In this document: positions 8,350 to 64,000 of the stretch, one piece after another | How the letters are laid out: every line of letters starts with the position of its first letter | Numbering within the stretch: position 1 is the first letter of the stretch | DNA from: Nemertoderma westbladi | Lineage: Eukaryota > Animalia > Xenacoelomorpha | Reading direction: 5' to 3' | DNA length: 64,000 bases | NCBI GenBank assembly: GCA_032718475.1 | Contig: JAUCBJ010006962.1 | Coordinates: 151,976 to 215,975, forward strand | Position numbers and translations under genes: made by a program | Notes under the pieces: model-generated | Seen by the model: the letters and a program-made list of their open reading frames with translations, nothing else | Told to the model about the DNA's origin: nothing | Database searches by the model: none

Positions 8350-10319
8350 TGTTATGGTATATGGCGCTGTACACATTATTAGCCATTATACAGTATAATA
8401 TATTGGTTCATTATACAGTATAATATATTAGTCCGTTATACTGTACGCAATATTAGTCCGTTATGCAGTATAATATTTTAGATAAGACATAATAGCGAGG
8501 TGATATTTAGATAAGGAAACTGAAACGCCCATATATTTTGAACTCATCCATTTTGTATAGTATGTAGCCCTACCTACGTAATTTTGTATTAAGATATAAG
8601 TAGATAGTTCCAGGGTAGCAAGTTCAGTTGGACCCTGGATATGTGCTTGCTGTTATTAGCTTCGATAGGGCCAGCATCTAGGGACGCAATCCTAACCATT
8701 CCGCAGCCAGGGACACGATCCATTACCATATATGGTAATAATTTACGGTTTGGAAGCCCTGAGGTTCACAATCCGGCTTTCTAATTGGACTAACTAATAT
8801 TCTTAACTGTGTTTCTCAATCAATCCTATTGATTACTGCTAATTACAACCGGAACTATGATTTCTACCTCTTCCGTTAATGGTTCTATGTAATTTATTTC
8901 GACGCAATAATCCTACGGGATTTCTGAGACTGTCAGACTTGTGATTTGCATGCGCCGCTACGGTAGCTATTCAATAAATGGAGGGCTAAGGTGCCAGTAG
9001 GCGGTGGGCGCATCGGGGGGTTAGCGACGAAGGGAGTGCGGAAGATTCAAAGGCGGGCAACGCTGGCGGGGGTCAACGTTGTGGTCGGGCAATTTGAACT
9101 GTAGGTAGAGACCGCTCGCTGGTACGGTAACTAGGGGGCTGATGATCCAGATTTTGTCTCTATTTAGTATTAGGGGGGCAGGAATTGGGTTAGTTAGGAA
9201 GCCTAGATGTACCCGGGAGGGGCCTGCATACCCTACAGTAAATTGCGAATTAGTCAATTGCGAATTATTACGTTGCGAATTATATAATTGCGGATTGTAT
9301 AATTGCAAGTTATACTATTGTGATCTGTGATTGCTGACGCTGATTGGTGTGTTACTGAAGTGTGCCTATGATTACGAATGCTTAGGTAGGCGCCCGTTTC
9401 TCTTTGATTGATTTCTATTTCTTAGTTACAACAAATAATTACTGATTAGGTCAAAGTAATACGGCATTTTAGGCTATTACTAGCGAAACCTGTTGTGTAA
9501 TAAATTAGAATTACGCATTCTGGAACTCTTAGTAATTAGTGCGCTGTTACATATTTGTGACTGTAATTGATTAGTAAAATTAAGAATTAGTACGCAGCAT
9601 AGCGGAGAGTAGCTAAGGTAATAATTTAGAGTACCGTAAACTATTCACGCTGAGCGGTTATTTGCATTAGCGGGCAATAAGCTAGATCGCAGTAGTCAGT
9701 ACGCAAGACACTAGTAGATTGCTGGCCTAAAGCCAGCTGCAGGCAAGTTTAGACCCAGAGCGGTATCACCCACGAAAGACAGTGTACTGTACCAATTTTT
9801 TGATTATTTTAAATATTCTCGCATTCACACATTCCGTTAGGGAATCCCCAGTATTCGCGATTAGAAAAGACGTAGACAATAGCGTGCTTTAATAGTGGTA
9901 AAATTAGGCGTAATAATACTCTGAGTGCAAAGCCTCTCGCACTCGTCTTAAGTAAGCTTAGGGAGCCGACTCGGGTTTATTGTTTTGGTTATTCCCGCGT
10001 GGCTCATAGATTCGAACAGTTAGCTCTCTATCGAGCGATCGGTAGAGAAAGGAACAAGCGATTTTGCAGGAGCTGTGTAAATTTAGTAAAATATATTAGC
10101 GGACGGCAGATTAGCGCCATCCAACGGTAAGTAGCGGTTTTGTATTTAGCAGCCTTTACATTTTAGTAATAGCACGCTCCTGATCCCCTTTACTTAACAG
10201 TAGAGCAGTCTTTGTGTCTTATTGGTTAGGCGAGAACTCATTAGGTTGGCAGAGAAGTATACGGGTATTTGTCTGTTCAACAGTTCTGCTGTTAGTATAG
10301 GGGTCGCGCCTGTTTAACA
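8350..10319 (+). repeat. 3' LTR of element A (~1.97 kb)
   Basis: TGTTATGG...GTTTAACA. Aligns with B LTR 35569-37835 and diverges exactly after TTTAACA. Confidence 0.92.
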
Positions 10320-20800: not shown

Positions 20801-21018
20801 TGTATACTTATATATGTAAGCCTTCAAGTATAAACAAAACTGACCTTAACAAAATCAAGGTAGGCATTTGTTATTTTCCATCAGCAATATGGGCTTTAAC
20901 TTTTAACTTTACATGGGATTAATAATACTGTAATATTCTAGAACAATACCACATGGCCAACGCCGTCGGCCATGCGCTCGCACGGCGCAAATGCTCCATT
21001 TGCGCTCTCCACCTGGAT
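14855..21018. mobile_element. Head-to-tail dimer (period ~3081 bp) of a non-coding, probably rolling-circle (Helitron/Helentron-like) element
   Basis: Identical 73-aa ORFs at 17293 and 20374. Junction CACCTGG|ATGGTTTGGCTG at ~17939. Terminal hairpin GCGCAAATG-CTC-CATTTGCGC and short subterminal inverted GGAGAGC/GCTCTCC. Confidence 0.7.
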
Positions 21019-32770: not shown

Positions 32771-33237
32771 TTATGGAGCTGGTAGAATATGCATCCAATC
32801 AGGTATTACCATATCCTCCTCATCTAACAGCCATCTTATGGGAGAAGATACATTGATGATGGGTACTACTAGGCTTATATACGATTGGTAGTTGGTTCTG
32901 GCTGGATAGGTGTCTATCTTTAAACAATATTTACAAAGTGGCAGCAAGGTTGACTCGATTTCTCCATGTTTTGAACAGAAAAGACGATACCGAAGCTCGT
33001 TCACGTCATTAACTTCTGACATTCATGTAAAGCAATAAGTATTATGCATAAGTCAGGTCCAAGATTAGCTGATATAGTGTTTATGTTATAATGCGTTATT
33101 CTACTTAGAGATCCACACTTTTGATAAACCTGGCATTTCAGGACATCGTTTTCAGCCCTTGTAATGTATTTGAGAGGCATTGATTTGTGTCCATTTATTG
33201 CCGGCACCCTCATTATCATATCGAATATGAATGTCAC
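32771..33237 (-). pseudogene. Degenerate fragment of the same CXC-associated transposon gene family
   Basis: LGPDLCIILIALH...VNELRYRLFC...LLPLC...ARTNYQS...W...DWM..LPAP corresponds to the region preceding the CXC cluster at 11458. Confidence 0.5.
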
Positions 33238-35568: not shown

Positions 35569-37835
35569 TGTTACGGTATATGGCGCTGTATCCACATTGT
35601 TCGCCGTTGTACTGTATACACGACATTGGTTATTATGCAGTACACATTATTAGCCATTATACAGTATAATATATTAGTCCGTTATACTGTACGCAATATT
35701 AGTCCGTCATGCAGTATAATTATTTAGATAAGACATAATAGCGCAGTGACATTTAGATAAGGAAATTGAAACGCCCATATATTTTGAACTCATCCGTTTT
35801 GTTATAGTATGTAGCCCTACCTAGGTAATTTTGTAATATGATATAAGTAGATAGTTCCAGGGTAGCAAGTTCAGTTGGACCCTGGATTTCGGGCTTGCTG
35901 TTATTAGCCTTGATGGGCTAGCTATCACGGGTTTGATTTCTTTATAATCGCGCTAAATTAACTTTTGTGCATCATGTTATTAGTGCCACTAAATTAAGCA
36001 TCGGCAAAATTACCTTATATGGTGACGTTTTGTGGGTTTGGGGAGCAATAGGGCTACAATCCGGCTTTCTTATTGGACTAACTGCTTCCAGGTTGGTCTA
36101 ATGCTAGCGCGGATTGGAGAGCCAATGAGAGAGCGATTGCATCACCCTTCTCGGATCACCTATAAATTGGCGGTTTGCCGGTAGAGCGGTATCTATCTGT
36201 ATATATTCCCCACACAGCAACAACAGCAGCAACTCACTCAGACATATTTAGTGCCATTAAGTTTAGGAGTATAATTTGTGTGTATTTTCTGCATTTCTAC
36301 CTTTTGATTAATTTTCTTGAAATGATTCGTTAGTGCTACTATTCTCACTTGTGTTTCTCAATCAATCCCAACGATTACTGCTAATTACAATCGGAACTAT
36401 GATTTCTACCTCTTTTGTTAATGGTTCTATGTAATTGTTTTCGACGCAATAATCCTACGGGATTTTCTGAAACTGTCAGACTTGTGATTTGCATGCGCCG
36501 CTACGGTAGCTACTCATTCTGATGGAGGGCTAAGGTGCCGGTAGGCGGTGGGCGCATCGGGGGGTTAGCGACGAAGGGAGTGCGGAGGATTCAAGGGCGA
36601 GCAACGTTGGCGGGGAGTCACCGTTGCGGTCGGGCAACTTGTGCTGTAGCGTAGAGACCGCTCGCTGGTACGGTAATTAGGGGGCTGATGATCCAGGTTT
36701 TGTCTCTATTTTAGCATTAGGGGGGCAGGAATTGGGTTAGTTAGGAAGCCTAGATGTACCCGGGAGAGGCCTGTACGTACTACAGTGTGGAGAGTGAATT
36801 GCACAACTGTGGACTACACAGTAGTGAACTGCATAATTGCGAGCTATGATTGCTGACGCTGATTGGTGTGTTACTGAAGTGTGCCTAAGATTACGAATGC
36901 TTAGATAGGCGCCCTTTTTCTCTTTGATTGATTTCTATTTCTTAGTTTACAACAAATAATTACTGATTAGGTCAAAGTAATACGGTATTTTAGGCTATTA
37001 CTAGTGAAACCTGGTGTGTAATAAATTAGAATTGCGCATTCTGGAACTCTTAGTAATTAGTACGCTGTTACATATTTGTGACTGTAATTAGTTAGTGAAA
37101 TTAAGAATTAGTACGCAGCATAGCGGAGAGTAGCTAAGGTAATAATTAGGATACCGTAAACTATTCACGCTGAGCGGTTATTTGCATTAGCGGGCAATAA
37201 GCTAGATCGCATTATTCAGTACTCAAAACACTAGTAATTTGCTGGCCTAAAGCCAGCTACAGGCAAATTTAGACCCAGAGCGGTATTACGCACGTAAAGA
37301 CATTGTACTGTACCAATTTTGATTATTTTAAATATTCTCGCATTCACACATTCCGTTAGGGAACCCCCAGTATTCGCGATTAGAAAGAACTTAGGCATTA
37401 TCGTATTACAGTAGTAGAATTAGGCGTAAGAATATACTCTGAGTGCAAAGCCTCTCGCACTCGTCTTAAGTAAGCTTAGGGAGCCGACTCGGGTTTATTG
37501 TTTTGGTTATTCCCGCGTGGCTCATAGATTCGAACAGTTAGCTCTCTGTCGAGCGATCGGTAGAGAAAGGAACAAGCGTTTTTGCAGGAGCCGTGTAAAT
37601 TTAGTAAAATATATTAGCGGACGGCAGATTAGCGCCATCCAACGGTAAGTAGCGGTTTTGTATTTAGCAGCCCTACATTTAGTAATATCACGCTCCTGAT
37701 CACCTTTATTTAACAGTAGAGCAGTCTTGGTGCCTTATTGGTTAGGCGGGAACTCATTAGGTTGGCAGAGAAGTATACGGGTATTTGTCTGTTCAACAGT
37801 TCTGCTGTTAGTATAGGGGTCGCGCTAGTTTAACA
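35569..37835 (+). repeat. 5' LTR of element B (~2.27 kb)
   Basis: TGTTACGG...TTTAACA. Repeated at 52259-52963 and in LTR A. Confidence 0.95.
36111..36166 (+). promoter_or_regulatory. Candidate LTR promoter (ATTGG/CCAAT boxes and TATAAA)
   Basis: GGATTGG at 36111, GCCAATG at 36121, TATAAA at 36161-36166. Confidence 0.5.
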
Positions 37836-37845
37836 GTAGTACGTA
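37836..37845 (+). promoter_or_regulatory. Non-tRNA primer-binding position of B, complementary to LTR 36774-36783
   Basis: GTAGTACGTA versus TACGTACTAC. Confidence 0.65.
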
Positions 37846-38929: not shown

Positions 38930-41368
38930 ATGAGTGTCTCAGACAAGGAGGCACTAGAGGACAGCTATGAGAAGGCGGCTGGACCGCCGACTGACGATAG
39001 CGTTAATATTACTGTTGACGACAATGCCGACTATGACGACGCAGCGAGCGATGCTGACGTAAGTGAACAGGAGGACGAGACAGTAACTAGTGAGGAAGAA
39101 CAACAACCTCAAGTAATAGTATTAGGATCCCCTACCGCTACTGTAAGGAAGGATTGTACAGCAACCCAACCAGAGGTGAGTGATAGGGAGGGTAGTGTAG
39201 CAGAAGCGAGAGCCCGGAGCCCGGTTTCCAGACCTGTGGGTATGGTAAGTGCCGTGGTCCCAGCGGCTGTTAGGAGTACCCGTAGTTCCCGAAACAATCC
39301 TTCAAGTCCACCAAGTGTGAGTCAGGTAAGCGAGAGAGAACTTGACATCGCGATAAAGAAGAAACTTCGCGCGCATGCCGGACATATAACTCGGACAACG
39401 GACAAGGTAAGGAAGATGTTAGCTGACGCAGGTAACATCGGAAGGGAAGGGTTAGTAGAGATTAGAAAGGGATATAACTCAGCGTTATTTAAGCAGACGG
39501 AGGAGCTTGCAGTCCTAGCGAAGAGAGCAGTGGAGTCTCAGTCGAGCGACGTGGCGACGAGGGTTTATGATAGGGTTTTAGCAGCCCTGTTGGAGCACCT
39601 CGCTTTATCGGAGCGATTCCGACGAGTTAGGACGGAAAACTGGCTGCTATGGGCATCACAAGCGCAGGCGAATCAGGTGAGTGACGCAGAGTTGAGAGAT
39701 TTAGAGGAGCGAGAAGAAATCCAAGATAAGGAAGAGCGCCGTTATCAGAGGGAAGTTACTAGCTGGCTGATGCAGAGCGGAGTGGTGGTACCAGGCCAGG
39801 TGCTACCGACGACGGAGAACATCCAACAGAGGACTTTGACTCCACCCGACGACGCATCCAGAGACAGTGGTGATTCTCAGGTTAGTCACGCGCGAGGGAA
39901 GGTTATATGTGCTAGATCCCTTGTTTCTCACAACTCGGCGGAAGAGAGAAGACTCCGACTGGACGAACAACAGGCTGAAGTTTTGCGTGAATCGGAAGCA
40001 CGGAAGGAAGCCGAACGGGAACGGGAGCGCACACGTAAGTTAGACGCGAAGTTGCGCGAGTTGGAAGAAAAGGGTAAGCGTGAGCGAGCGGAACGCGAAC
40101 AGAAGGAACGCGAACTCCAACTCGAACGCGAACGCAAGGAACGCGAACTCCAACTCGAACGCGAACGCAAGGAACGCGAACTCCAGCTCGAATGCGAACA
40201 GAAAGAACGCGAACTCCAGCTCGAACGCGAACAGAAGAAACGCGAACTCGAACTTGAACGCGAACGCAAGGAACGCAAACTTGAGATCGAGAAAGAGCGA
40301 CAAGCGTTGTATGAAGAGAAGGCGCGTGTGGAAGAAGAGAGTGCAGCGAGACGAGCGAGGGAAGAAGAAGAACGTAAACTGGCACAGTTGGAAAGTGCGA
40401 GATTAAATTTAGAGAGCGAAGAACGGTCCAGGAAGGCGAATGAAATCGCCGAGAAAGGGATGCGAATGATCGAAGAATGTGGGGCGAGTGTAGGGACTGA
40501 GTTGCGAGAACTGTTTGCACTGCAGAAGGCCGAACAGGAAGCGAGAACTCCGACCATACGCGAGTCGACGACGACCAGAATTCCTATACCCGGTCCAGCT
40601 ATTACGAGTACACGGATCGCTAAACCGTTTTCTACATATCGCACGCCAGTTGGTATTAGTGCTTCACCCATCGCGCAGAATCCACGTCATCAGAACACCG
40701 CACCACTACATACTGAACGAGACGATGAAGAGTTTAGAGGAGAAACTCCGACGGGCCGAGTATTTGGCGAACCGAACCCGCGGGTTTGGAATATGCGGAC
40801 GGAACGCCGACCCAGTTCGACGGAGAACTTCCGGGTTAAACCGGAAGAGGGATCATATGAGAGACAGCGGATTACTCAGATAGAGCCGACTATACAACAG
40901 AACCCTAGCCAGGAATTTATTACGAGGGATGAGTTAAGTGCTAGTCTAGCGCAAGCTATATCACCGCACATCCAACCTATAACGGACATGCTTAGTAACC
41001 TACAGTTAAAGGAAGCAACCCAGGTAAGAAGTAATTCAAATCCTAGCAGGCCTGAGTTAGATAAAGTCCAACCTAGTCAACGAGTACGTATATCAGAGGC
41101 AACTATACATAGACCTCAGGTAAGGACGCCTGTCCCGACTATCCATAATCCCAATTTCGAAAATTCGGCAGAAAAGTTTATTCAGGAAGCTTGGGTCAGG
41201 GCTTTGGCGCGCAAACCAACGCGAGCGCTAAGGACTGACACAGAATCAAGTGATGAAGAGGAAGAAATGAGACGTCAGAAGTCCCAAAACTATAAGGAAA
41301 GAAGGACCGACGCGGAGCAGGTAAGTTGGAACCACCGGGAAAGGACCAGACTTAACAACCCTGCGTAA
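38930..41368 (+). CDS. gag: Gag N-terminal region (acidic N-terminus, long coiled coil); in frame with the downstream gag-pol
   Basis: 812 aa with ERERKERELQL repeats. A single in-frame TAA separates it from 41378. Confidence 0.8.
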   Translation: MSVSDKEALEDSYEKAAGPPTDDSVNITVDDNADYDDAASDADVSEQEDETVTSEEEQQPQVIVLGSPTATVRKDCTATQPEVSDREGSVAEARARSPVSRPVGMVSAVVPAAVRSTRSSRNNPSSPPSVSQVSERELDIAIKKKLRAHAGHITRTTDKVRKMLADAGNIGREGLVEIRKGYNSALFKQTEELAVLAKRAVESQSSDVATRVYDRVLAALLEHLALSERFRRVRTENWLLWASQAQANQVSDAELRDLEEREEIQDKEERRYQREVTSWLMQSGVVVPGQVLPTTENIQQRTLTPPDDASRDSGDSQVSHARGKVICARSLVSHNSAEERRLRLDEQQAEVLRESEARKEAERERERTRKLDAKLRELEEKGKRERAEREQKERELQLERERKERELQLERERKERELQLECEQKERELQLEREQKKRELELERERKERKLEIEKERQALYEEKARVEEESAARRAREEEERKLAQLESARLNLESEERSRKANEIAEKGMRMIEECGASVGTELRELFALQKAEQEARTPTIRESTTTRIPIPGPAITSTRIAKPFSTYRTPVGISASPIAQNPRHQNTAPLHTERDDEEFRGETPTGRVFGEPNPRVWNMRTERRPSSTENFRVKPEEGSYERQRITQIEPTIQQNPSQEFITRDELSASLAQAISPHIQPITDMLSNLQLKEATQVRSNSNPSRPELDKVQPSQRVRISEATIHRPQVRTPVPTIHNPNFENSAEKFIQEAWVRALARKPTRALRTDTESSDEEEEMRRQKSQNYKERRTDAEQVSWNHRERTRLNNPA
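40090..40290 (+). repeat. 33-bp coding tandem repeat (ERERKERELQL) x ~5-6
   Basis: GAACGCGAACTCCAACTCGAACGCGAACGCAAG units. Confidence 0.9.
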
Positions 41369-47285: not shown

Positions 47286-48052
47286 TGTTGGATGCAACTC
47301 ACTTCGTATGCATTCCTCGTATGCAAATACTAGGAAATGCACAGGAGCGGGTTTGCGGTGATTTGCGTGAGAATTTGTCTGGTGGGTATCAAAACAAAAT
47401 TTTATTTTCAAAATTTTCAAAATTAGAAAATTTTAAAAAAAATTAGAAGTGAACCCAAGACAATTCCAGACGCTGTGTATAGACGCGTTTTAGAATTCGT
47501 CTATAGATATACAGTAATTTGAAAAGTCGTGAAGCCTGGAAAATAGCATTTAGAAACCATGGTGACGGCTATATTACGTAGGAGTGTAAATTGAGTTTAG
47601 CAACTTCCACAGATTGGTGCCAACAGTACAACTAGGGTGCTAAAGGTTAGTAGCATCAGGGCGTACACGGACCCCACTCAGTAGTTTGCAGTCAAGTGAG
47701 ATGTATGTTCGATTATCAAACCTGTGGGTTTGGTATAGTCGAACATTAAGACTATTGTCCTTTCTAACTACTGTAGTTTAGTACGAGTAATAGGAGTAGT
47801 TTGGGAATCAAAAAGTGAGTTGGTCACGGCCAGTTTATCTCCAAAGTTTTGCGCTATGCATGGGAATAGGTTGGAGGATAGTTAGGAATGAGACGGGATC
47901 TAGAGAGTCAAACCTGAACTGCTGTAAGGCGGGGGGGGGGGGGGGGGGGTTCAAGAGGTCTGTCCTTCGGCGACATCTAACTGATTTACCCACAGTGTAA
48001 TTAGTTACGTAATGGCACTTATTGGAATATATATGTATATACGCGGCGCATA

Positions 48053-51000
48053 ATGGAGAAGGAAATTAGAGCGCAACCGCGGAGAGGATTTACTGCTAGA
48101 GAGGAGGCGGAGTTACCATTCGGGCGACCGGGATGTAAAGATTCGAACGTTTACTACCATGGGAGGTCAGTGATGGAGCTAAATGGAAGGTATAAACCCG
48201 CGTATGATAAGGAGCTAAGGAGGGAAAGAATGAGAGCGTTGGGGGACCGTATGGAAGTTTTGCGGAGAGAGTATCGCACTCGGTATCCCTACGATTTCGC
48301 TTTAGACGTATGTGACATTAGTGCAGACCCGGATGAGGAGATCGCGCGGCTGTACCATATGAACATGTATTTACGATATGAAGAACCTCTACCTGCAGTC
48401 CGAGACCAGTTCGACGGAATGCATCTGTACAGGAGGAATCGAGGCGAGGATCAGGAGACGCCGAAAATCTTCAGCGTGTACAAGCTGTTTTACAAGTGTG
48501 GTGAATGCATGAACAAACAAGACGTGGCGATTCCCGACCGGCTGGACGAGCAACATCCTGAACCGATATTAACGCGATGTCAAGCTCACCAGTTCCTTAG
48601 ATATAACGAGGGAGGTTACCCAATGAGCAACCCGATGATCAGTATCGACTTCAGCGGAAAGCGACCTCCATGACCCATTACGCCGACCGTTATAACATTA
48701 GATCCGTATACGGAGATTAAACCCTGTTCGACACCCAGTTTGATAGAGACGGCAGCGGCCATTTCGCTGTACCGAGCCTATAAGGATCTAGAGGCGCGGC
48801 GCGAAGCAGCACGGGACTCGGGTACCAAACCCGCGGGTTTGGAGCTCTCGAGTCCCTGGACTACGTTTACTTCGCCTCACCGAGCGAGAAGCCTCACTCC
48901 TGAGCATCAGGACGACATAGACGCGTTGCGGCAGGAGGAGAGAGCGGCGAAGGCGAAAGAGTTATTCGAGAAGCGGATAGCGGAGTATAATAAGACCGCG
49001 GATAGACATCAAGAGGAGACTAGGAGAGTGACCGGATTTGTTCCACAGGCCGTATCTCAACCCCGACCGGTGTATTATTCCGACGGCAACGAACCTGCGA
49101 TATTGGTAGATCATCCGGAGTCGCGAGAAGCGATAAGATTCTTGCCGATGGTAAGGATGCCGGATCATTGGAACGTTGACTGTCTACGGGAAGTTTTATG
49201 CGCGAAGTTCTTGCGTGATGTCCCGATGCAGATCACGGATTATGACACACTGGACAAGATTGGAGCTCCGGAGAAGGAGAGCAAATTGTTTGGATGGTTA
49301 GATAAGTACATCAAAGTATGGGTCGCGGTGGCTACATTCCCAGACGACGAGGAGGTAGACCAGACGTGGCTGAGGAGGAAGGGTTCTTACACCCGATATG
49401 ATGACCACAAGGCTATCGAGCGCATGTGGACCCCATCAGACGAGATTCAGCGTCAGTGGAGGAAAACGGAGGAATCACTGCAGGATTGGAGGGTGATGTT
49501 CTACAACAATGAAGGAGGGTCCCATCAAGAATGTTTGACTAGCAAGTGCATTCAATCGCGCAGCCGATGGTGTGACTCATGTGTTTATGCGCGTGAGGGC
49601 GGATCGAGAGAGACCGGAGCCCATCATAACGACACAATATCGGAAGGGGAAGGATCCTAGGGAACAGATTTTGGAGGTATGCAGGCGAGGAGGTATGCAC
49701 GGAGCGGAGCGTATCGACGCCAGGATGCTACCCAAGAAGGTTAGAGAGGCTATTCTCAACCAAGATTACGTCAAGGTGGGATCAGGAGTCCAGAGCGATT
49801 TGGAGAGTGACTTCAACGCCATGACTGATTTGGAAGATAGATTGCCGAGACCGTTTGTCGTCACCAAGCTATTGTTGCTATGGGCTGGGCACAGCATATT
49901 GGAATTTATAGGGAGTATCCCAACTCTGCCAAGACTGGTATGGGCTTTATAGCACATTTGTTGTATAATTGGGACTTTAAGTTAAAGACGCAGAAGAAGT
50001 ACGAGGAGGCGTATGGTGAATACAACACGCCACTGGGAGCGGAGTTCAAATCCCACTTCAAGCGGCAAGCGTTAGTGTATTGGAACATTTGCGCGCCACC
50101 CCGTGCGTCGCTACAATATTATTTGGTGCTTGAGTCGAACACGGTAACTTGTTTATTAGCGGATATCGTTGCGCGAGTTTTGAAGCGTCATCCATTGGTA
50201 TTCGGAGGAGATCAATACATTCGCTCGAAAGGGGGAATCCAATCCGACGTGATGAAGCGTTTCTTAACCCCGTTCTTCAACCAATCGTTAGAAAATACGT
50301 CGATGGTTAGGAGAGGATTAGCGATATTCGAAGGAGTATATCGACAGAACATCGGAGATTTGGGAGACCGACCGTCGATGGAGTATCCGACGCCAGAGGC
50401 CTTGGAGAAGTGGTTCGGGAATCAAACCCGCGGGTTTGGTACTCTCTTCCACTCGGAGGCTGATAGACCCGTTAAGGAGGGTTGGCCGGAGACGTTAGTA
50501 GAGGTGTTCGGAGTAGATCTTCCGGTGGAGAAGACATATCCGAAACGAACGCGGGAGGAAATATTGGAGATAGAGGACAAGGGCGAGGATGTTTACTTTG
50601 TTCCGGATCGACAACTGCTGACTGGAGAGGACGACATCGTATTAGACATTGGGAAAGAATGAAGTGCGAAACCGATTGGAGACCTCATATACGAGAGGGC
50701 CTGGTTTCCACAAGCGCAGGTGTAAGTTGTGCGGCAGCACAAGGCACAATCAAAAATCGTGCGACGCGGTAGTAGAGGCGGCGCATAAGGTCTGCCTTTT
50801 GGTGCAATGAGACCGACCATTCGTTTCATACATGCACCGTCTTCATTTCTCAATGCGGATACTGTGGGGTAAAGGGACATCGCAGCGCGAGATGTCAGCT
50901 GCGAGATGATTCCTTCCAAAACCACAGCGCTAACCTACTTCGGGAGATGCTAGATAAGTGGGAGGGTGTGACCGACTACCACATCCAAGCGCAGATGCGT

Positions 51001-51762
51001 TGGTTACCATTTAAGGCGGGATACGGATTTTGGGCAGTAGACCCATCTCACGTTGCGTATGAGCCGTATCTACAGTCTTTGCCACAATATCAGGAGCTCA
51101 TCTTGACCGCTCAAGACCTTCCACAAAACACTGGAGTTATCGTAGTTCGAGAATACTTCAGACAGTTGAATATGGACAACAAGTACACTTGGAACTTTGT
51201 TGCTATTTGCGACCGGATCACGAAAGGTCTGTTTTCGGAAACTAGAAAGGTGGTACGCGCGCGAGGGGATTGGAGGATGGCGGCTATACAGTACCGCAAT
51301 GAGTTCTTGTTGACTCATGTACCAGTGGGGTCATTGACCGCTGAGAGGATACAGGAGCAGAGAATCGCAGCGACCACAGCGACAACCGCTGGAGCTCAAG
51401 GCTCGCGGAAAGAACCAGGAGGAGAGGTCCAAGACAAGCGTCAAGTCAAGGACGACCTCTATCACTCAATTATAGAGGCACAGCAGTTGCAGCGCCAGGC
51501 GCAGGGAGCGTCGGAGAAGGCACGCGTGCAACTGCAGAAGGAAGAGTTGGCGGAAGCGACCACAGCAGCACGACAATCGGGACGAGGCCGAGGTAGAAGT
51601 ACCAGCCGGGAATCTGTCGGGGCTCATGGAACATCGTCGCCGGTTCCAGGGAGTGACGCCTCACGGACGCCGTCAACAGAGTCAACTAGAGGAAGGTTGG
51701 TGTATCTGGGAAGAGGGCGAAAGAGGGTAGTGAGCCCAAAGAACCCAGGAGCGGGTCGGTAA
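48053..51762 (+). pseudogene. Extra ORF of element B (same gene as 3007-6665), disrupted
   Basis: ORF pieces highly similar to copy A, with lesions at different positions. Confidence 0.85.
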
Positions 51763-52258: not shown

Positions 52259-52963
52259 TGTTACGGTATATGGCGCTGTATCCACATTGTTAGCCGTTGT
52301 ACTGTATACACGATATTAGTTATTATGCAGAACACATTATTAGCCATTATACACTATAATATATTAGTCCGTTATACTGTACGCAATATTAGTCCGTCAT
52401 GCAGTATAATTATTTAGATAAGACATAAGCGCAGTGACATTTAGATAAGGAAATTGAAACGCCCATATATTTTGAACTCATCCGTTTTGTATAGTATGTA
52501 GCCCTACCTATGTAATTTTGTAATATGATATAAGTAGATAGTTCCAGGGTAGCAAGTTCAGTTGGACCCTGGATTTCGGGCTTGCTATTATTAGCCTTGA
52601 TGGGCTAGCTATCAAGGGGTTTGATTTCTTTATAATCGCGCTAAATTAACTTTTGTGCATCATGTTATTAGTGCCGCTAAATTAAGCATCGGCAAAATTA
52701 CCTTATATGGTGACGTTTTGTGGGTTTGGGGAGCAATAGGGCAACAATCCGGCTTTCTTATTGGACTAACTGCTTCCAGGTTGGTCTAATGCTAGCGCGG
52801 ATTGGAGAGCCAATGAGAGAGCGATTGCATCACCCTTCTCGGATCACCTATAATTTGGCGGTTTGCTGGTAGAGCGGTATCTATCTGTATATATTCCCCA
52901 CACAGCAACAACAGCAGCAACTCACTCAGACATATTTAGTGCCATTAAGTTTAGGAGTATTAT
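52259..52963 (+). repeat. 5' part of the 3' LTR of element B
   Basis: Follows GGAGCGG. Matches 35569-36274 until element C begins. Confidence 0.95.
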
Positions 52964-54157
52964 TGTTCGCGCTTTCAGACCTTTGGCAGTTTAACCCACC
53001 AAATTAAGATGTCTTCTAGATATTAAATCGGTTTTTAGTCTATGACAAGTATTTGATTCACTACACTAGTCGAAACCAATCTGTGCGCGATCATTCACCC
53101 GCTGGATATTCCCGGGAGATTGGGTTCGACGGTTTAATTTTATTGCTATGTAAGCCTAATGTATTATTCGACTGACAGTATTATATAATCTCTGACAATA
53201 TTATTCACCTTCGGGAAATATTAACAGTTCCTTTAGGACGTGGCGCTCTATCTATACAAACAGAGTTATGACTTAAACTACTCACAACGATATGGCTCAA
53301 TTATAATTCACATATATGGCGCATTCTTTAGGAATTGCTTCTTTAACAGACTCACTCATACACAATGCTGCACAATACTGCACACTAATCTGCCAATCTT
53401 CACTGATTTTAGTCACATATAAAAGGAACACAGACTGACTCATGTAGGGTCTATCAAATAACATTAGATTCACTTCAAACCACTTTAACATAAGTTACAA
53501 TCGTTATTGGTAACCTTTCTCTCTTACCTTCGGTATATCAAGAATATTGGGTTTCGGGGTTATTTATCGTTATTCCAAATATAATAATTCATCAACCATA
53601 TTATGAAGAACTGACAGTAAATAGCAGTATAAAACAACAATGAAAACACTGATTGTTATGAGTTTGCAATGTTTCAGCAGTCAGTATGTATGATCAGTTA
53701 GCAGTTAAAGGATATATGTCCTTATAATTAAACCTACTAGTGTAAGACTAAAAACTGAAACACGGAGGTGCCAAAAGCCGGTTCTTAGGCTCTGGGCAAA
53801 AACATAACACTGCACTACTGAGTTTCTGTATATACCTCCAACACAGAGACAACAAACGCTCTGATTGGTCAACCTGAACAACGAGAGAACAAAGAAACAA
53901 AGAAACGTCGACGTGGCAATATCAGCTGCTAGCCGTCGTCATGGTAGCGACACTGTTTTCAAGAGTATCGAGCTTTTACGTCACGGAATTACGGATTATG
54001 TCCTCTAAAGTACAAATACAGAAGAAATAGCTTTTATGTCCGCTAAAACACCAGTACAGCAAGGACACGGCCTTTTTATGCCTGGTAAACCAACTACAGA
54101 GTATTTTACGGGAAAAATAAGGAAAAATAACCGGACAATTCAGCAAAAGCTTTTACA
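52964..54157 (-). repeat. 3' LTR of element C (1194 bp)
   Basis: Minus strand TGTAAAAG...GCGAACA, preceded by GGGAGCGG. Confidence 0.9.
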
Positions 54158-54939
54158 CCGCTCCCAGAAAATGGGATTTTCAGTCTATAAAATATAAAAA
54201 TCACAGTTTCTAAAACATAAAGATACTCTAAACAGTTAGTCTTTCTTGCGCGGACGGCGTTTACGCAGTTTTTTAAAGCTAGCAAGAGTCATTTTCTCTT
54301 TGGGGGAAGCCACTTTACTAGGAGGGCCATAACTCCTGGGTGAAGGGTGCAATATGATTGCATTAAAAGGTTTGGGTTTACGGTCGGTGTCTCGTCCATT
54401 TCGATATGCTTCTCCTCGAGCTGATTTTCCTCCGCTTGTCATGGGATACGTTCGTCCAAAACTCTCGCAGAGAATAGGGTTTTCTAAGCTTGATATCTTC
54501 TTTGAGATTCGAGGTTTCCCAATCGAACTGAGATAAGGCCAATTTGTTTATCGATTGGACTTACTGTTGTAACTTACGTTTATCTGAACAAACGCAGGTT
54601 TCTTTTTGATCTTTATAGAATAGCGTTTAACTCGTTTCGTACAACGCTCTCCTTCACTTTGATGAAGGGTTGTATCGCGTTAAACGGGACGACCATACGG
54701 TTGGATAATGATATTAGGTGTCTGCGTCATAATCCAGCTAGGTAAGATGGGCGGCTAGCTAGAAATCACTGTCGGAGTGTTACCGATTAATTGTTAGGGT
54801 AGCACTAGATCTTGAACAGTGAATACCGTCTGCGAGGATCCGCGACACCACCAGGATCGCAGGTCTGAGGTCCAACTAAGAAATGAGGAGGTTTGACCGA
54901 GTATTCCGGGACTCTGATCGTAGGTTTACTCTAGGATCG

Positions 54940-55830
54940 TTAGAGCCGAGTGAGCATAGGTGATACGTCAAACAAGTTTCGCTCGAAACTCCAGTAAATA
55001 TAACGAACACAACTGTGTTTAACACAACGTTTCCGTGGATGTTTATGTCTTTCCGTTTATTGGCTGGGTCTAGGGCATTTACCGTAATAATACCCAAAAA
55101 CGTACGTCTTGTAGGGGAAACGCGAGTGATCTTTCTCCAGCTTACAATATTCCTCCATCCGTTCGAAGCTGTTCGGTACAACAGGTAGCGGTCGATCGGC
55201 GATAAGATACATCATAGGGGAATCGAGCCGTTTGAGTTCTACCATGCGGTCATGATGTATACCTTGAGGATATCGAGTTTCTAGATTTTGTTGACTGGCA
55301 ATATTGAGATATGTTTCTATCAGGAATTCCAGATAATCGTTGAAGTCGCTGCGTTTATCCGGCTCCTCAACGTCTTCTCTTTCGAGTCTGTTTCGAATAG
55401 AATTCTCGTGTTCCATTCTTGGTTTATCGTTCCGCCTCTGCTGGGTAGGATATTTCAATCGTACCATTTCCCTTTTGGTGTCGACATTGTCCGTATCGTG
55501 TAAATCGATAGGATGACCAGTAGTTAAGAAGCCCATATACGTACCATTACGCTGCGTATATCGAGCAGTGAATTTTCTATAGTCCAACTCACGCGTGAGC
55601 TGCTCTTGGGACATTGGCGGTTCGATATAACGACCATCGTCCTCCGCAGCAGTTGGACTAACGTCGCCGCGTATTAAGCTATCAACAAACGCTTGTAAAA
55701 GTAGAGTATATCGCTCCCCGATACCAAGACCATCTTCTATCAACTCCGTCATATCTGCTATATATGAGTTTATCCATATTATAATGAGTCCACATTTAGG
55801 CGAGCGGGCGTCGCTGCCTACCCCAATCAA
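54940..55830 (-). pseudogene. Extra ORF of element C, homologous to the N-terminus of the A/B extra ORF
   Basis: TRYP...MYLxxxxPLPxVxxxFxxMxxY, and RCxxHxxxRY after an in-frame TAA at 55057. Confidence 0.7.
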
Positions 55831-57408
55831 CCCCCGGACAGTACGAGATCCTCAGCGCCGATGTGTCGTCGCCGCTGTACTTTCGCCAACGACGTAGCCG
55901 CACAACGACAACGACAACCGGCACAAGTCACTCAACTGTCCGTCCCAAAGGCTTAGATGTACTTCAGGTTTTCCTTGGAGAGTTAGGTTACTTTACGATT
56001 GCGACTGGCTACTGTAAACACACCTTAGTAGTAACATTCGCCTATAAGCTCACAAGTACCACACACACAACTTGTCACAAATTACACACACTCGGGTCAC
56101 TTGTCCGTTAGTCAATGCCTTCCAGAATGTCACTGTATTATTATGTATCCTTGGATACTAGTAGTGCGCTATTTATTCCCTATGCTATTCAATGGGACAA
56201 GCTTTCTATTGTTCGTTTAACTCAATTCTAATTCTAGCGTGGTTGTTGCTATGGTGACATTATGCAAAGCTAGCGGTAGAATTAGAGTAATTCCAATGCA
56301 TACAGATCTGGGATGTTATTTAATAGTATTCTTTAATAGTCAATGTTCGGTTTTATACATGACTTTATGAATTTTATCGGCTATTGACTATGTTTGGGAG
56401 ACTTTCGCACACTCATATGCATAATAAGATAAATCTCCGCTCCCTTGATCTATTAATTAATGGAATTTTGGGAATGTTATAAATTGCGTAAAAATGGCAA
56501 TTTATTAAATTCATTAAAAGGCACGAATTTAAATTTATTCCCTGAAATTTTATTATTTGATAATTAAATTGACATATTTTGATTCTAGAACATGTCTAGG
56601 GACACAAGATCCTTAATTCTAAGAAAATTGTCTCTTTAAGAATATCGGTAAATGCTACGATATCTTAATTGACTAGAATTGTTGAAGGATCTGAATTTTA
56701 CAGATTTTGACTTATTTGATTTGTAAATATTAACTAATTAATATTTGAGATGGGCACCGATTTATTCCAGAACTTGTCTGGGGACGTTAACCACTGATTC
56801 TATAATTTGTCTTTCAAGTATATCGGTGGGTGCCACGATATCTTAATCGACTAGAATTACAGATGGTCAAAGGGTTTAACAGATTTATTTTGCGTTATAC
56901 GCTACTGTTAAAGGGACATCACGCTACTATATGTATTATTTAATATACGGTATGAGAGCAATATCGCACGAAGCAATGTCAGTGTGAAGAGGCAAGTCGT
57001 TTCCAAGGTCTACCCAGAGCTTGGTTTAGCCGAGACACGAGGATCTGAACTTTGCATTCCTAATACTCTGCCTACCAATAATACTTAAATATAGTAGTGG
57101 CTTTATTGTACTTTAATAAGTACGGACATTTCATCTTACTGTAGTCACGTATTTATAATATGATACGGACAGTAAGGAAAGAGGAAAAGAATTATTTCTT
57201 GCCGTCGCATTAAATATAATATATACGTAATTAAGTAATAAACGCGAATATATATTGCACTAATCTACTAAATAATCGCTAAAATAACATTCTACTGAAT
57301 AAAATTAAAGAAAACGATTATAATAAAATTACATAGTAATACATACGTAAATATAAAAATAATAAAATAATATAAAATAATAGAGTCACACACCCACTCC
57401 ATATGTTG

Positions 57409-58635
57409 TTACGTTATGGAGTCCCTAGATGTTTGAAGGATTAGGGAGGTGGTCGTGGGATGAGAATCTTGCCTTCCACAGTTTCCGGAGAGTCCTCCAT
57501 TCCCTTCCGGTAAACACAAACGACCGACTGGGTGATTGAGTCGCTGCATCCTGAATACAATTCCAGGTTTCCTCTTCGTCCTAGAATAGTGACGATAGAA
57601 ACATCGCTCAAAGTATATGACGGCGTCACAAAGCCGATTCCAGGAGCTATAGTGGTCCGTCGCTCTCTGCAGGAGAGGTGAGAGTCCCTGCGAGACGTCT
57701 GATGTTCCAGAGCTCCAATCGCTCTCTCTGATCTTCATGAAGGATCCACTCGCGGTGGGGAGGTCCAGATCCACGGCGTCGTCCCTGGCAATATGTAATA
57801 CCGACAGATCTATCCCGGGTTCAAATAACTCCGATCCACCCGTCCGGGTTTTAGGTTTGACTTTCTCCGCTCCCTTGGCTGGTCTAATCTCAGTCGGAGT
57901 AAGATGGGGAGGCCATTCATCCTCCTTACTCAGGAAGTCGGGTTCACCTAACCGGTCTGTAGTATCTGTCAGTTCTTGAGGAGATGCTCCTCTGGAAGCG
58001 ATGTCAGTTGGATTAAACTTCTTGGGGCAATATCTCCATTGATCTACATTGGAGCTAAGATTGTCATTATCTGAGGAGTGTGGTGTTCCCTCAGTTGGGT
58101 CGTCTCCCTCACTAGTATCATCTTCCCATTCACTCACCTGGCAGACGCGATCTTAAAGCAGTCTTTCCCTGAGCGTTCTACGGGAAGGTCCAGTAAGGTA
58201 CCAACCTACTCTAGTTCTTACCGCATAGGTCTGTAGTGGCTGCGGTTGAGCAGGCCGTTTCTCTAATGTCTCCAGCGCCTCATGCGCGTTTTGGCCGATG
58301 AGTATTTGCACTCCAGGATAATCAGTCTGGAATCGAGGTATGTTAAGATGTTGGATGCTCTCATCCTCGTCCCAATTATAAAGGTCTGCTTGAGTAGTAG
58401 CGAAGTTCTTTATAGCCACCATTTTCACTGACCTGATGCTATGTTCTCCTAGTTCGTCCTGGGGGGTGGACAACTCACCTATATAATAGTCGGCAGCTAC
58501 AGTAGAATTCCAAACCTGCATGATCCCTGACATGTTTAGCTTGGTTCGGAACTTGGGTTGTCCAGCAAAGATGACTTCGGCTAGTTCTTTATCGATGAAT
58601 GTTCCTGTGCTACCGGAGTCCAGGAGGGCGTTCAC
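57409..58635 (-). pseudogene. pol: Protease and Pol remnants of element C
   Basis: ALLDSGSTGTFID, ILIG...TRVGW; a spacer fused directly to QWRYCPKKFNPTDIASRG. Confidence 0.85.
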
Positions 58636-58686
58636 TATATAGCTCTTCTGAGGTCCGTGGACCCGTAACTGGACTACAGGAAATTC

Positions 58687-61437
58687 TCAGATCCCTATAT
58701 TGGAAGTTGGCGCTTTCCAAGATGGTTGTTGATCGGAAGTAGTTAAGGTAAGGTCGCTGTCTGTGTCTTCCTCATGCACGAGTACTCGATACACTGCGGT
58801 GGTGTTTATTAGGTAACAGGATTCGTTTTGGTCGGAGAACTCGTCCGTATAGAATCCTTCCATCTCAGATTGATCAGTGTCGTTCACATCACTGAATTGG
58901 ACATGTAGTTCGGACTCACTTACCTGACTCGGGCTGTTTCGTTCTAATTCCGTGTGCAACAAGATATTATGTTTTGCGCCGCACTTTGCACACCTTGCGT
59001 CGGAGTTACAGGTTCGCCGTTGGTGTCCTCGTCTGAGGCAATTATAACACAACCGCTTATCCCACATGACTTCACGTCTATCCTCGAGTGATTTCCTCAG
59101 GAATTTATCACACGCATTTAAACGGTGGGGCCCGTCGCACAGCACACATTTCGGCTTGATGTTACTTACTTTAACCTGTGCTATGTGGTGCACACTTGTT
59201 CTTTCCTCGGGCTTTCTCACCTGAATTCTTTTAGGAGACGTAGGAGGGTTTTTTTGTACCGGTTCCCTTCTGGCATTGGGTCGAGACTTGGATTTACTTA
59301 CCTGATCTTTAGGCATTTTATTGCCATAATAAGATCTTTCAGTGTCTTTCCCGCTGTCCTCTCCTTGAGAAGTTTGGCTTTCACCGTCGTCGGTATAACA
59401 TACTGGTGTTACCCTTCTCCTAGAAACGGGTTTCTCACTTACCTTGTTTTCCAATGTCTTCTCTCTGGACTGCCTTAGGAGCTGTAATTTCACTTCTCTA
59501 TCTAAGAATGACATGAGATCAGTCATGGTAGGGTCTCGTCGTTGTTGTTCCATCATATATAACACCTTCTTGTCCCAGCGTGTACCTACTCCACCCTTGG
59601 GCAAAGTAGATGCTAAGGCTCCTACAACCATAGAATTCTGGTATTCATGAGACTTACCTAACCAATCTAGTTGTCTACAGATCTCCTGAATCTCATCGGA
59701 AAACTCTATAATCCCGCTGCTAAGAAACTTTCGGGGCGCCATTAATTTCGCATATAAATACCTAGCTATGTTAGTCCTATTACCATACCTGATGTTTAGT
59801 GTATCCCAAACTTGTCTTAATCCATCTGGATGTCCAATAAATTTTAACGCCATTGACTTGGGAGGTCCTTCCAAACATTCGATGAGGAATCTAAGTTTCT
59901 CTCCGTTAGATAGTACAGAGTTCTGTATGTTATCTTTATAATATTCATTAAAAGGTAACCATTTCATCTCATCTCCATTGAACTTGACGATCTCTCCCAC
60001 CTTTACCGCTTGCCGGGCTTCAGTTCTAGCCATTTGACGCGTAAAACTTTCTTGAGCCATCGCATTATTGAATAGAGAATTATCGGTATATAAGTTTCTC
60101 GGATTATTATCAAGTCTAGATGAGATATCATTATCAACAGGTTTATAATTACCCTTAATAGGGTTCACTATAGGAGTTTCTATTTCGCTAGCAGTATAGA
60201 TGCGTGTAGGCTCCACACCTTGCGCATGGGATACTTCAGACCTAACGGGTTGACACATTGTTACAGGGGGTGGTGGTATACCCTTTTGTGTGTTCACTAA
60301 TTTATCGCGTTCTAACGCGATACTTTGCTGCACCTTTTGCAACTCTAACCTACTTTCCCTTACTGTGCCCTTGAATTGCTGGACAGTCTCTTCCAACTCT
60401 CGGACCTGTTGGGAGGAGCGTATCCGATTCTCCTTCATCTCTCCAAGGAGAATATCCATCCCCCGCCGTCTCTCGTCTACCCAATCAACCGCCGAAACGG
60501 GATCCGCCAACGTCGTAGCGGGCAGACGAGGGACAACGGGCGACAAATTTGGAATATTTCATTCGGGGTCCAGGACCTGAACTGTCTCCTGGGCAGTTCT
60601 ACGGGGCACAGGTAGCTTAGTGCTATGCAGAGGGAATTTAGAGGTAGTTTCAGGGAGCACAGGTGTGTCTATCACCGAAGGGGTGATTTCAAGAACAGGC
60701 CTAATTATTTCAGGATCATCTACTATAGTAGGGAGTCTTTCTATTTTAATTATTTGGTCTGTGGGCTCTGTACTACCTAAGTTGGTGTTATTTAGTTGCC
60801 TTCTAACAGCTGGAGGCAAATCAGGCAATTTCTGACGGTGGAATGTTCTTTTACGTCTACTTAGACGAGATCTATTTCCTTTGCCTTCAGTATCGGTGGT
60901 ATCGCCTTCCTCAGATGATGTAAATCCCTGTCTCTTGGAAGTAGTCCGACTTATCAGCTGCATATCACTAGCCGTTATCTGTTTATTTAAGTAATCGTGC
61001 TTCTCTTGAAGATTCTCCAACTCTAGTTGGACCTTTTCTTCAGATGCCCTCCGTTCCGCTTCTGCCACTGCCACTGCCGCTTTTCTTTCTGCTTCTGCCG
61101 CTGCCACTGCTGCTGCCACTGCCGCTGTCTTTCTGTCTTCTATCTGTTTTTTCTTCAACTGTTGTTCCCATTCTCTAACGATGCGGATTCTTTCATCAAT
61201 TTTCGCTCTATTCGCTGCCAACATTTCCGCATCTATTGCGTCCAACACAAACTTTGCTCCTTCGCTATTAGGGCTAAGTCCATCTAACCTTCTCCTCAAT
61301 TCGTCATCACCCAAAAAACGTTGATAGTCCGACAGGTAGATGTCAATGGCATCCCTCTTATGCGACTTCTCTGCCGTCACTTCGCTCTCGGTTGTATCTA
61401 GTAGACTGTCTGATAGGTTCTGTCTTGCGTCAGACAT
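58687..61437 (-). CDS. gag: Gag of element C (in-frame TGA at 60559-60561)
   Basis: KFNGDEMKWLPF, LSNGEKLRFL, CVLCDGPHRLNAC, CYNCLRRGHQRRTC, CAKCGAKHNILLH. Confidence 0.9.
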
Positions 61438-62789
61438 GCTTATGTGTACAGTTGAATGTCTACTGCTGTATTACAGTCTGAGCAAGTCTAGTAACTCAGT
61501 ATTAACTGATAGCCTAGTAATTAATTACCGGTACTGCTACTCAGTGTAGCGTGATATATATAATATATTAGAATACCGGTATGCTTATAGTATATATAAC
61601 TATTATTACAGACTAGGTTTATCACAGAATACCGGTATAATTTTAGCACAAATATATATAAATATATAATAGGCCTATCGGGAATACCGGTATACAGCTT
61701 ACAGTTTGTAGTATATATAATTCTGGACTAGAATTAATTACAAGTACCGGTATAATTTCAGCCTAAATTTATAGAAATAAAGATAATAGGCCTATTGTAA
61801 ATACCGGTATATCAATTATTTTAAATAACTGAATTTCTGAATTTTAAGGGTTACTTGGTTACTTTAACTTACTTTATTGCCGTTATTTAAGCAGTAGTCC
61901 AACTGATATTGAGACCTAATTGTTGTATGGCAGGCCTACTATTTATAAATCGTTAGATTTGATTTATAATATATATATACCCGTTTTAATGGGTTTTGTC
62001 TATGTTTGAAATAAATGTTATTATTTCTGGGGAGTAATCACTACACAAAGCGGTGCGCTTTCAGTGAAGTGTTACTTATAGGACACTAAAACAAATAATG
62101 CTAATTTACCTAAGTTACTTAATACTACAAATTACGTACGATTCGGGTTGAGATTACAATCTCTAAATAAACACAAAAATTTACAAAAACACAAAATACG
62201 AAATTTTAGGGTAATTTTACAAGAAGTCTACAAACCAGTCTAACAAAGGGTTAGAAATCTGGTTATTACAACTGACAGGGTACTGCGGTTATTTGAAAAT
62301 AATACGTAGTAGTAAATACACTGCGTTGTCCAGATAGGAAAATACCACCGCCTGACGACCTATAGCCGTATCGCTATAGGTACTACGTTATGTATCACGG
62401 AGTGTTCCTACCTAGAAGTTAATAGAGCTAATCGAATGTGCCTATTAACCACTTTACAACACAAATATAATGCCTACACTAATTACTTTCGGAAAGCACT
62501 GTACACTAAACCCTAAATTAGGTACGAGTACTTGTACAACAAATAATCAGTAGTTAAATATACTTGAACAGCTAAAAGAACCACGGCATCTGCTGGAGTG
62601 ACCGATGCACAAAATCACCAGTCTTTACCTACGCCGAGCAGCCCGTGTAGTACCGGGGTTAATTTAACTATAGCGGTATGTATAACAAACACAATTACTG
62701 TAGGAACAAACTTGGGGAATGAATGTTGCGGATAATCGCATAAACTCTGAAGAATAAATATTACGCTACGCGTACAAACTACTCAAACA

Positions 62790-63330
62790 AAATACAGACC
62801 GAACACTGACAGACTACTATCAAGCCTAAACAAACTACGGTATATGCAGACTCCGAAATGATTAGGGAGTATGCGCTCTAACCCAGTAGTGCGACTTATT
62901 CTTTAGTTGGGGGTTTACCTTACAGCGTTCGCTGCCCCTACTGCCTAACCGTACTTAATCGGACAGATGATCTACACACGCGGCAATCCGTTCAGACCTA
63001 ATAACAGCCAGACAACTATCCAGCCTACAAATTATCTAAATAAAATTATACGCTACCCGTACAGACTTACACAAACAAAGTACAGACTAAACGATGGCAG
63101 ACTACTCTCAAGCCTAAATAAACTACAGGACATGCAGACTCCGAAATGATTAGGGAGTATGCGCTCTAACCCAGTAGTGCGACTTATTCTTTAGTTGGGG
63201 GTTTACCTTACAGCGTTCGCTGCCCCTACTTCCTAACCGTACTTAATCGGACAGTTGATCTACACACACTGCAATCCGTTCGGACCTAACAGCAATCAGA
63301 CAACAGCTCAGCCTACAAATCTTCTGTACA
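62790..63330. repeat. ~288 bp direct duplication in the 5' leader of C
   Basis: CAGACTCCGAAATGATTAGGGAGTATGCGCTCTAACCC at ~62847 and ~63135. Confidence 0.9.
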
Positions 63331-63643
63331 ATCTGATCAGGTTTACACGTCTTCTGTTCAATACTGGCCTACAAACAAATAAAACTTGACAGAAATAAGT
63401 AAAATCTCAATAAAAAACCAGGGCGGCCGTTCCCTGATTAAGTACTAAGACCTACCGGTATACAACAATCAAATCGAATAATACTAATGTACTTATACGG
63501 GAAGTACCGGTTGGGACAGTTAGGCCTACGGGCCTACGGCAGTATCGGTTCTGGCAGTTGGGCCTACTGACCTACAGATGTACCGTTCAGGTTTACCGGT
63601 TGACCGGTACTTTCAACTTTATTGCTTACTGCAATAAAGAAGC

Positions 63644-63655
63644 TATATCCTTTAA
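63644..63655 (-). promoter_or_regulatory. Non-tRNA primer-binding position of C, complementary to an LTR-internal site (53705-53716 in the 3' LTR)
   Basis: Element-sense TTAAAGGATATA versus LTR TATATCCTTTAA. Confidence 0.7.
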
Positions 63656-64000
63656 TGTTCGCGCTTTCAGACCTTTGGCAGTTTAACCCACCAAATTAAG
63701 ATGTCTTCTAGATATTAAATCGGTTTTTAGTCTATGACAAGTATTTGATTCACTACACTAGTCGAAACCAATCTGTGCGCGATCATTCACCCGCTGGATA
63801 TTCCCGGGAGATTGGGTTCGACGGTTTAATTTTATTGCTATGTAAGCCTAATGTATTATTCAACTGACAGTATTATATAATCTCTGACAATATTATTCAC
63901 CTTCGGGAAATATTAACAGTTCCTTTAGGACGTGGCGCTCTATCTATACAAACAGAGTTATGACTTAAACTACTCACAACGATATGGCTCAATTATAATT
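63656..64000 (-). repeat. 5' LTR of element C (runs off the window)
   Basis: Almost identical to 52964-53308. Confidence 0.95.

Follow-up and report, generated by a model that had tools for sequence, protein, structure and literature searches.

A 64,000-nucleotide stretch of DNA from Nemertoderma westbladi (Xenacoelomorpha; assembly GCA_032718475.1, contig JAUCBJ010006962.1, positions 151,976 to 215,975 of the forward strand; hereafter the window) harbours three related or neighbouring retrotransposon sequences, designated A, B and C. The primer-binding site of element C, a BEL/Pao retrotransposon, directly follows its 5' long terminal repeat (LTR) and is the perfect reverse complement of 12 bases inside its own LTR. 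Transcription of C probably begins at this LTR site or no more than a few bases from it; the site would then pair with the primer-binding site, be cut and prime reverse transcription without a tRNA. Self-priming as such, irrespective of whether the RNA starts at the site or further upstream, is held with good confidence. LTR retrotransposons fall into three superfamilies, of which BEL/Pao is one; according to PMC8742986, BEL/Pao replication is primed by tRNA and not well understood.

The two 12-mers involved, TTAAAGGATATA as the first internal bases of C and TATATCCTTTAA as the predicted self-primer, are each unique in the window (Table 1), and their letters and coordinates had been given correctly in an initial annotation of this DNA. 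The 5' LTR ends with ...GCGAACA at 63656, an end fixed by the divergence of the LTR copies at the first base past ACA. The LTR site was read in the 3' LTR copy; its 5' counterpart is expected at 64397–64408, beyond the window. TGG is absent from the first 60 internal bases. Dinucleotide shuffles of the C LTR yielded a match of at least 12 bases in 3 of 5000 cases when starting from +1 and in 7 of 5000 from +1 to +6 (second run: 0/4000 and 3/4000, respectively), and such a 12-mer LTR match exists at 3 of 9486 internal positions of C, the primer-binding site among them. That the match in C arose by chance and that an unusual cellular RNA such as a tRNA half acts as primer is scarcely credible. 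The 12-mer is AT-rich, the covariation evidence described below stems from the B family rather than from C itself, and half-tRNA priming is reported for copia lineages in the available text of PMC6317226. Against this stand the shuffle counts, which remain significant for C even under the widest survey model (junction plus contiguous matches, start up to +5; 1/200), and the fact that B and 11 of the 13 relatives show such a self-match as well.

The initial annotation also reported a perfect 9-bp hairpin behind the primer-binding site. It is present and rarely matched by chance (2/3000 shuffles of the first 60 bases), but it is not a feature shared with B, since the window contains 21 distinct perfect stems of at least 9 bp and the first 120 bases of B form only a 5-bp stem. 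The stretch ATATCCTTT within the C site (53707–53715, minus strand) corresponds to the U12-type donor consensus; two such 9-mers exist in the window. A U12-type intron starting in the C site was rejected: no matching branch motif occurs in the LTR, and it is not shared by A or B.

Element B, into which C is inserted, displays a 10/10 match of the same kind, equalled in 16 of 4000 LTR shuffles from +1 and in 42 of 4000 from +1 to +4, and has no TGG at +1 to +6. As previously noted, the LTRs of B and C share no evident similarity (best blastn match 30 nt, 80 %, E 0.56, in opposite orientation), and the proposal that the pairing is conserved with unrelated letters is upheld by B, by its family members and by the distant loci described below. 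The LTRs of A and B are 84–100 % identical in 19 of 22 25-base bins around the site, and identity falls to 25–56 % in three bins beginning exactly at the first base of the site. Within it, A differs from B at 4 of 10 letters, and contigs of two other samples depart from B at the same base as A does. Three primer sites were predicted beforehand from LTR-site variants, and four of ten listed sequencing runs were compared at the B LTR end; the first prediction was not blind, as nine of its letters were already visible nearby in an earlier contig table. One site variant (run X3; majority cell of three contigs, agreement 0.72) differs from B at 5 of 10 letters. In two samples (runs X1 and X3), its exact complement stands behind the LTR end. 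Gapped contigs bridging LTR end and leader are consistent with this exact primer site. The complement of the A site was matched 9/10 twice, by one variant in X1, X2 and X3 and by a second one in X1 (agreement 0.73). With three predictions and some nine candidate ends, a rough estimate puts the chance of one exact match over the seven variable letters on the order of 0.002. Across these contigs the LTR site and the primer site of the B family change together, with at least three different primer sites in one family within one organism. An exact search of metagenomes for the A/B LTR end gave no matches, and 60 pattern matches among viral contigs included no relative.

A candidate intron begins one base past the site in A (GTAAAT, 9238–9425, plus strand) and, with a weak donor, in B (GTGTGG, 36785–36945, plus strand). 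It could end at a strong pyrimidine-rich acceptor 161–188 bases on, and would follow the primer rather than split it.

The recurrence of self-matches was surveyed among distant BEL/Pao loci. A profile of the reverse transcriptase (RT)–RNase H region of B yielded 79 metagenome loci (from the best 80 of 520 relatives, half of the collection being scanned) and 13 genome-bin loci. Direct repeats were present in 40 of these 92 loci; the LTR end could be fixed in 15, and removal of two near-duplicates (L007, L092) left 13. For matches that begin at +1 to +4, seven of the 13 are complementary over 10–15 bases to a GT-AG junction within the LTR of the same element, and two have a contiguous match of 10–11 bases. 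The start was widened to +5 post hoc, after two more matches had been seen by eye. The widened test finds self-matches over 10–15 nt in 11 of 13 loci (nine at splice junctions, two contiguous) compared with 5 of 154 cross-pairs. The observed length was equalled in 0–4 of 200 shuffles for ten loci and in 9 of 200 for L069. Two loci (L017, L026) have the same primer core, leaving about ten independent families. The splice-junction loci are L006, L008, L010, L017, L026, L048, L053, L059 and L083, with the donor GTAAGT in seven of nine. Of the two loci lacking a self-match, L058 carries a TGG close to the start and falls outside the main group of the tree, and L086 has repeats that do not flank the polymerase match. 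Twelve further loci without a known LTR end contributed five clear junction matches of 11–14 nt, one tie and two contiguous 10-mers; they had no shuffle control and were left out of the count. A splice-junction model was rejected for C and B themselves (best spliced match 9 nt each, reached in 73/300 and 22/60 shuffles); both are of the contiguous type. The 13 genome-bin contigs (L080–L092) are filed in bacterial metagenome-assembled genomes and encode a BEL/Pao polymerase; most likely they represent wrongly binned animal host DNA.

A cellular primer is argued against by the covariation in the B family together with the self-matches of distant loci. Another possibility is that the pairing is real but structural, serving packaging, dimer formation or translation control, with a host RNA or another route providing the primer. 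Pairing between LTR and leader is frequent in LTR elements, and priming is deduced here from sequence. For the family, the International Committee on Taxonomy of Viruses (ICTV) gives tRNA priming (PMC8742986). A purely structural role is nevertheless rather improbable, because in all 13 matched elements (11 relatives, B and C) the paired stretch begins 1–5 bases past the LTR end, where a primer must sit, TGG is absent from C, B and 9 of 11 matched relatives (L083 and L048 have TGG at +2), and the B family contains several primer sites. As to the lineage-wide tRNA-independent priming suggested in the initial annotation, the survey supports the pairing, and the step from pairing to priming is deduced; the lineage-wide claim rests on the survey of distant loci, and close kinship of B and C is weakly supported.

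According to the proposed mechanism, the RNA of C would start at about LTR position 442, its front would pair with the primer-binding site, and RNase H would cut after base 12, as in Tf1. Because C has lost RT and most of RNase H, it would be unable to prime unaided and would depend on an intact family member for enzymes provided in trans. Copying of first-strand DNA would proceed through the U5 and R regions to the cut, and the missing first bases would be restored from the 3' LTR after strand transfer. The primer would be copied during second-strand synthesis, as in the standard retroviral scheme, and a change in the LTR site would presumably be carried over to the primer site by this copying, which may explain why the two sites change together.

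The predicted start is consistent with the folding of C, in which the helix attains a probability of 0.91–0.97 if the RNA begins 0–5 bases ahead of the site and drops to 0.0 once 25 or more bases of upstream sequence are added. A start there is also favoured by the divergent block of the B family, which opens at the site, and by the poly(A) hexamer, which in most elements follows it. An unlikely alternative is self-priming from an internal site, in which the RNA originates at a TATA-type promoter (start about 90 bases upstream of the site in C and 585 in B) and a single cut at the 3' edge of the site releases a long primer. CCAAT followed by a TATA-like box 34–39 bases on in C (LTR 290, 324) and B (554, 593) agrees with this scenario, as does the missing TATA box at -30 from the site, and the covariation and survey evidence is equally compatible with it. 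However, the predicted helix is lost with upstream bases in both C and B, although folding of long RNAs is weak evidence, and the match has a sharp 5' edge coinciding with the start of the divergent block. It is very improbable that the site represents the 3' end of the RNA itself, i.e., a poly(A) cleavage site folding back to prime. C does carry ATTATA, a weak variant of the hexamer, 24 bases ahead of the 3' end of the site, and its primer site begins with TT, but none of 13 other elements carries any of 13 hexamer variants 12–45 bases upstream of this end. In 12 of 14 elements, namely C, B, A and nine of the 11 relatives, an AATAAA or ATTAAA follows downstream of the site.

Several points weigh against the proposed mechanism. 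The RNA start was inferred from DNA and contig sequence. None of C, B and A has a TATA box some 30 bases ahead of the site; TATA-like boxes are located at -118 in C and -613 in B, and TATA at -31 occurs in one of nine relatives examined. The B leader fold is unstable, with a helix probability of 0.98 in one of eight settings and at most 0.01 in the other seven. For relatives of the splice type, an RNA beginning at the edge of the match would have a first exon of only 3–9 bases. A perfect-match test for the flanking duplexes of the Tf1 'pretzel' returned one 9-bp candidate in C (73/2000 shuffles) and none in B or 11 relatives. Under the wide survey model, B by itself is not significant (13/60 shuffles). 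The covariation was seen only in the B family and on short unphased contigs, some loose ends of which are genomic flanks, and the third predicted primer site, a single substitution compatible with a G-U pair in any case, is not among the matches listed. Apart from this, a test for a duplex at the U5 end was negative in 13 of 13 elements. No tRNA genes were found in the window. A search of 35000–64000 against Rfam gave three matches, all far below the gathering score and none at the site, so that this region contains no ribozyme or known RNA.

The 11 bases TTATAAGGACA (53717–53727, minus strand) directly precede the C LTR site and also occur one base before the matched stretch in L053 (LTR about 234–244); L083 has AAGGAC at the equivalent position. 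They may be a promoter element or due to chance, and in C could also pair locally with the site.

Self-priming is established for the retrotransposon Tf1, the first 11 bases of which pair with the primer-binding site and are released by RNase H between bases 11 and 12, and was proposed for Tj1 and the Tf1/sushi group (available text of PMC7175516 and PMC4600332). As described there and in bioRxiv 10.1101/2022.12.06.519325, as far as available, Tf1, Tf2, Tj1 and the Tf1/sushi group resemble C and B in having no tRNA site and a primer-binding site right behind the 5' LTR that perfectly complements 10–12 bases of the own LTR. The Tf1/sushi elements are Ty3/gypsy chromoviruses, whereas C and B possess BEL-type domains; the latter would be Tf1-like in working, not members of that group. 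They differ further from Tf1 by the distance between site and primer site (741 bases in C, 1052 in B), the lack of TATA ahead of the site and a 'pretzel' not supported by the perfect-match test, and nine of the 11 matched relatives have their complement only when the LTR is read across a splice junction. For plants, the available text of PMC6317226 predicts self-priming for Tcn1 (gypsy) and TAR, Houba and Osr-1 (copia), amounting to 12 % of the surveyed elements. As with C and B, these predictions rely on sequence and lie outside fission yeast, but they concern plant and fungal gypsy and copia elements, and neither BEL/Pao nor a splice-built primer is mentioned in that text. The fungal copia element GalEa has, like C, no classical primer site and a hairpin just past the 5' LTR (Conserved Hairpin Site); in contrast to C, the available text of PMC5445492 describes no LTR complement and places the hairpin at the LTR end, whereas that of C begins at +17 and is absent from B.

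According to the ICTV description, Belpaoviridae have LTRs of 0.2–1.2 kb and a primer site of 18 nt that complements tRNA-Arg or tRNA-Gly (PMC8742986). C and B share the LTR structure and polypurine tract and, between them, the gag/pol domains (DUF1759, Peptidase_A17, DUF5641) of this family, but have no tRNA site, and B has an LTR of 2.27 kb plus several extra 3' open reading frames (ORFs). Since the BEL/Pao assignment rests on protein domains, the missing tRNA site weakens the family description and not the assignment. Self-priming in BEL/Pao was not encountered in the titles and abstracts searched, a scope lying outside Repbase, Dfam, GyDB, supplements and subscription journals. The terms 'PBS' and 'tRNA' are absent from the main texts, as available, of two BEL/Pao surveys (PMC3118150, PMC554778), and BEL/Pao self-priming is unmentioned in the available parts of PMC3601003, PMC5445492, PMC8220671 and PMC11042837. 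The mechanism proposed is of the known Tf1 kind; new are its occurrence in the BEL/Pao superfamily and its splice-built form.

Tentatively, a large animal branch of BEL/Pao may have dropped tRNA priming in favour of the front of its own RNA, which host splicing would assemble in most families, whereas C and B would need no intron. Primer and primer site would change together fast enough to serve as a private lock and key between subfamilies that are alike over 95 % of their sequence. If much of BEL/Pao self-primes, the reference description would be wrong for that branch and self-priming would occur in all three superfamilies. Such elements would also be beyond the reach of tRNA-fragment silencing aimed at primer sites. 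Thanks to the matched, fast-changing pair of the B family, the claim can be tested on genomes alone, and it yields predictions of RNA start and cut to the base.

Table 1. Coordinates of features of elements A, B and C in the window
Feature	Position	Strand	Remarks
C primer-binding site TTAAAGGATATA	63644..63655	-	first 12 internal bases, flush with 5' LTR end
C LTR site TATATCCTTTAA (predicted self-primer)	53705..53716	-	LTR 442-453; 12/12 reverse complement of primer-binding site
C hairpin, perfect 9 bp	63617..63639	-	+17 to +39, loop 5 nt
C LTR 813-821	53337..53345	-	9/9 complement of internal +13 to +21 (63643-63635); adjoins primer site, overlaps hairpin arm; borderline, 73/2000 shuffles
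C CCAAT and TATA-like boxes	53829..53868	-	LTR 290 and 324; 118 bases upstream of LTR site; candidate alternative promoter
C AATAAA and ATTAAA	53133..53144	-	LTR 1014, 1020; 560 bases past LTR site; likely poly(A) signal
C 3' LTR	52964..54157	-	1194 bp, TGT...ACA
C 5' LTR, visible 3' part	63656..64000	-	345 bp; LTR predicted to reach 64849
C polypurine tract core GGGAGCGG	54158..54165	-	directly before 3' LTR
C gag	58687..61470	-	stop at 60559-60561; DUF1759 E 7e-14; CCHC knuckle
C protease region	57901..58686	-	runs straight into end of RNase H region
C remnant of 3' accessory ORF	55000..55851	-	weakly similar to B ORF at 48005-48673
B LTR site	36774..36783	+	LTR 1206-1215; first bases of block differing sharply between family members
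B primer-binding site GTAGTACGTA	37836..37845	+	10/10 complement of B LTR site
B 5' LTR	35569..37835	+	2267 bp; end fixed by copy in element A
B 3' LTR, first 705 bases	52259..52963	+	C inserted here, opposite orientation
A 3' LTR	8350..10319	+	1970 bp
A equivalent site in 3' LTR CATACCCTAC	9227..9236	+	letters differ from B; A primer site lies beyond window

Element C is classified as a young, non-autonomous, internally deleted BEL/Pao retrotransposon on the minus strand, inserted head-to-head in the 3' LTR of B. Its LTR copies are identical at 344 of the 345 visible bases (one mismatch), and it possesses the TG...CA ends and polypurine tract of BEL/Pao LTR elements; B and A carry GGAGCGG ahead of their LTRs at the position of the polypurine tract. 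RT and most of RNase H were deleted between about 58186 and 58053, several stops lie in frame, and an integrase was not found in C. The order protease, RT, RNase H, integrase is complete in B and incomplete in C, a deletion derivative. In-frame gag stops upstream of DUF1759 are present in both B (41366–41368, plus strand, TAA CTA) and C (60559–60561, minus strand, TGA AAT), for which decay and read-through are both possible.

Element B is annotated as a full-length but broken BEL/Pao element with the domains DUF1759, Peptidase_A17 (E 2e-37) and DUF5641 (E 9e-17). A 676-bp B LTR ending at 36244 was ruled out, as the copy in A shows the LTR reaching 37835. Relative to B, the 3' LTR of A is shortened by an internal deletion (1970 versus 2267 bp); the CCAAT and TATA-like boxes of B are lost, whereas the site is retained. 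The B polymerase is about 35–42 % identical to its best database relatives, of which those with a name come from cnidarians, a hemichordate, molluscs, echinoderms and a brachiopod. B is assigned to no named clade, because it sits on a long branch without a supported group in the tree (quick method, 88 of 94 rows). The polypurine tract core in common, an alignment of C gag-protease to B (23 % identity, E 4e-29) and the 3' accessory ORF (31 % over 77 amino acids, pairwise E 2e-4) weakly suggest that B and C are close kin.

B (48005–51762, plus strand) and A (copies at 2965–5792) contain about 4 kb of extra ORFs 3' of the integrase, one with a CCHC-like knuckle. These ORFs belong to no Pfam family and have no match among the 92 related loci; two accessory ORFs of B searched against Atlas gave no usable match, and a penicillin-amidase look-alike of low recognition was not accepted. 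Elsewhere in the window, a tandem duplication of about 3.08 kb (14850–21018; 98.7 % identity) carries a 15-bp perfect hairpin in each copy. A rearranged RT-coding element resembling long interspersed nuclear elements (25499–30137, within 25204–34897; RVT_1 E 8e-15) is adjoined by an element with 1-kb inverted repeats (30415–34760).

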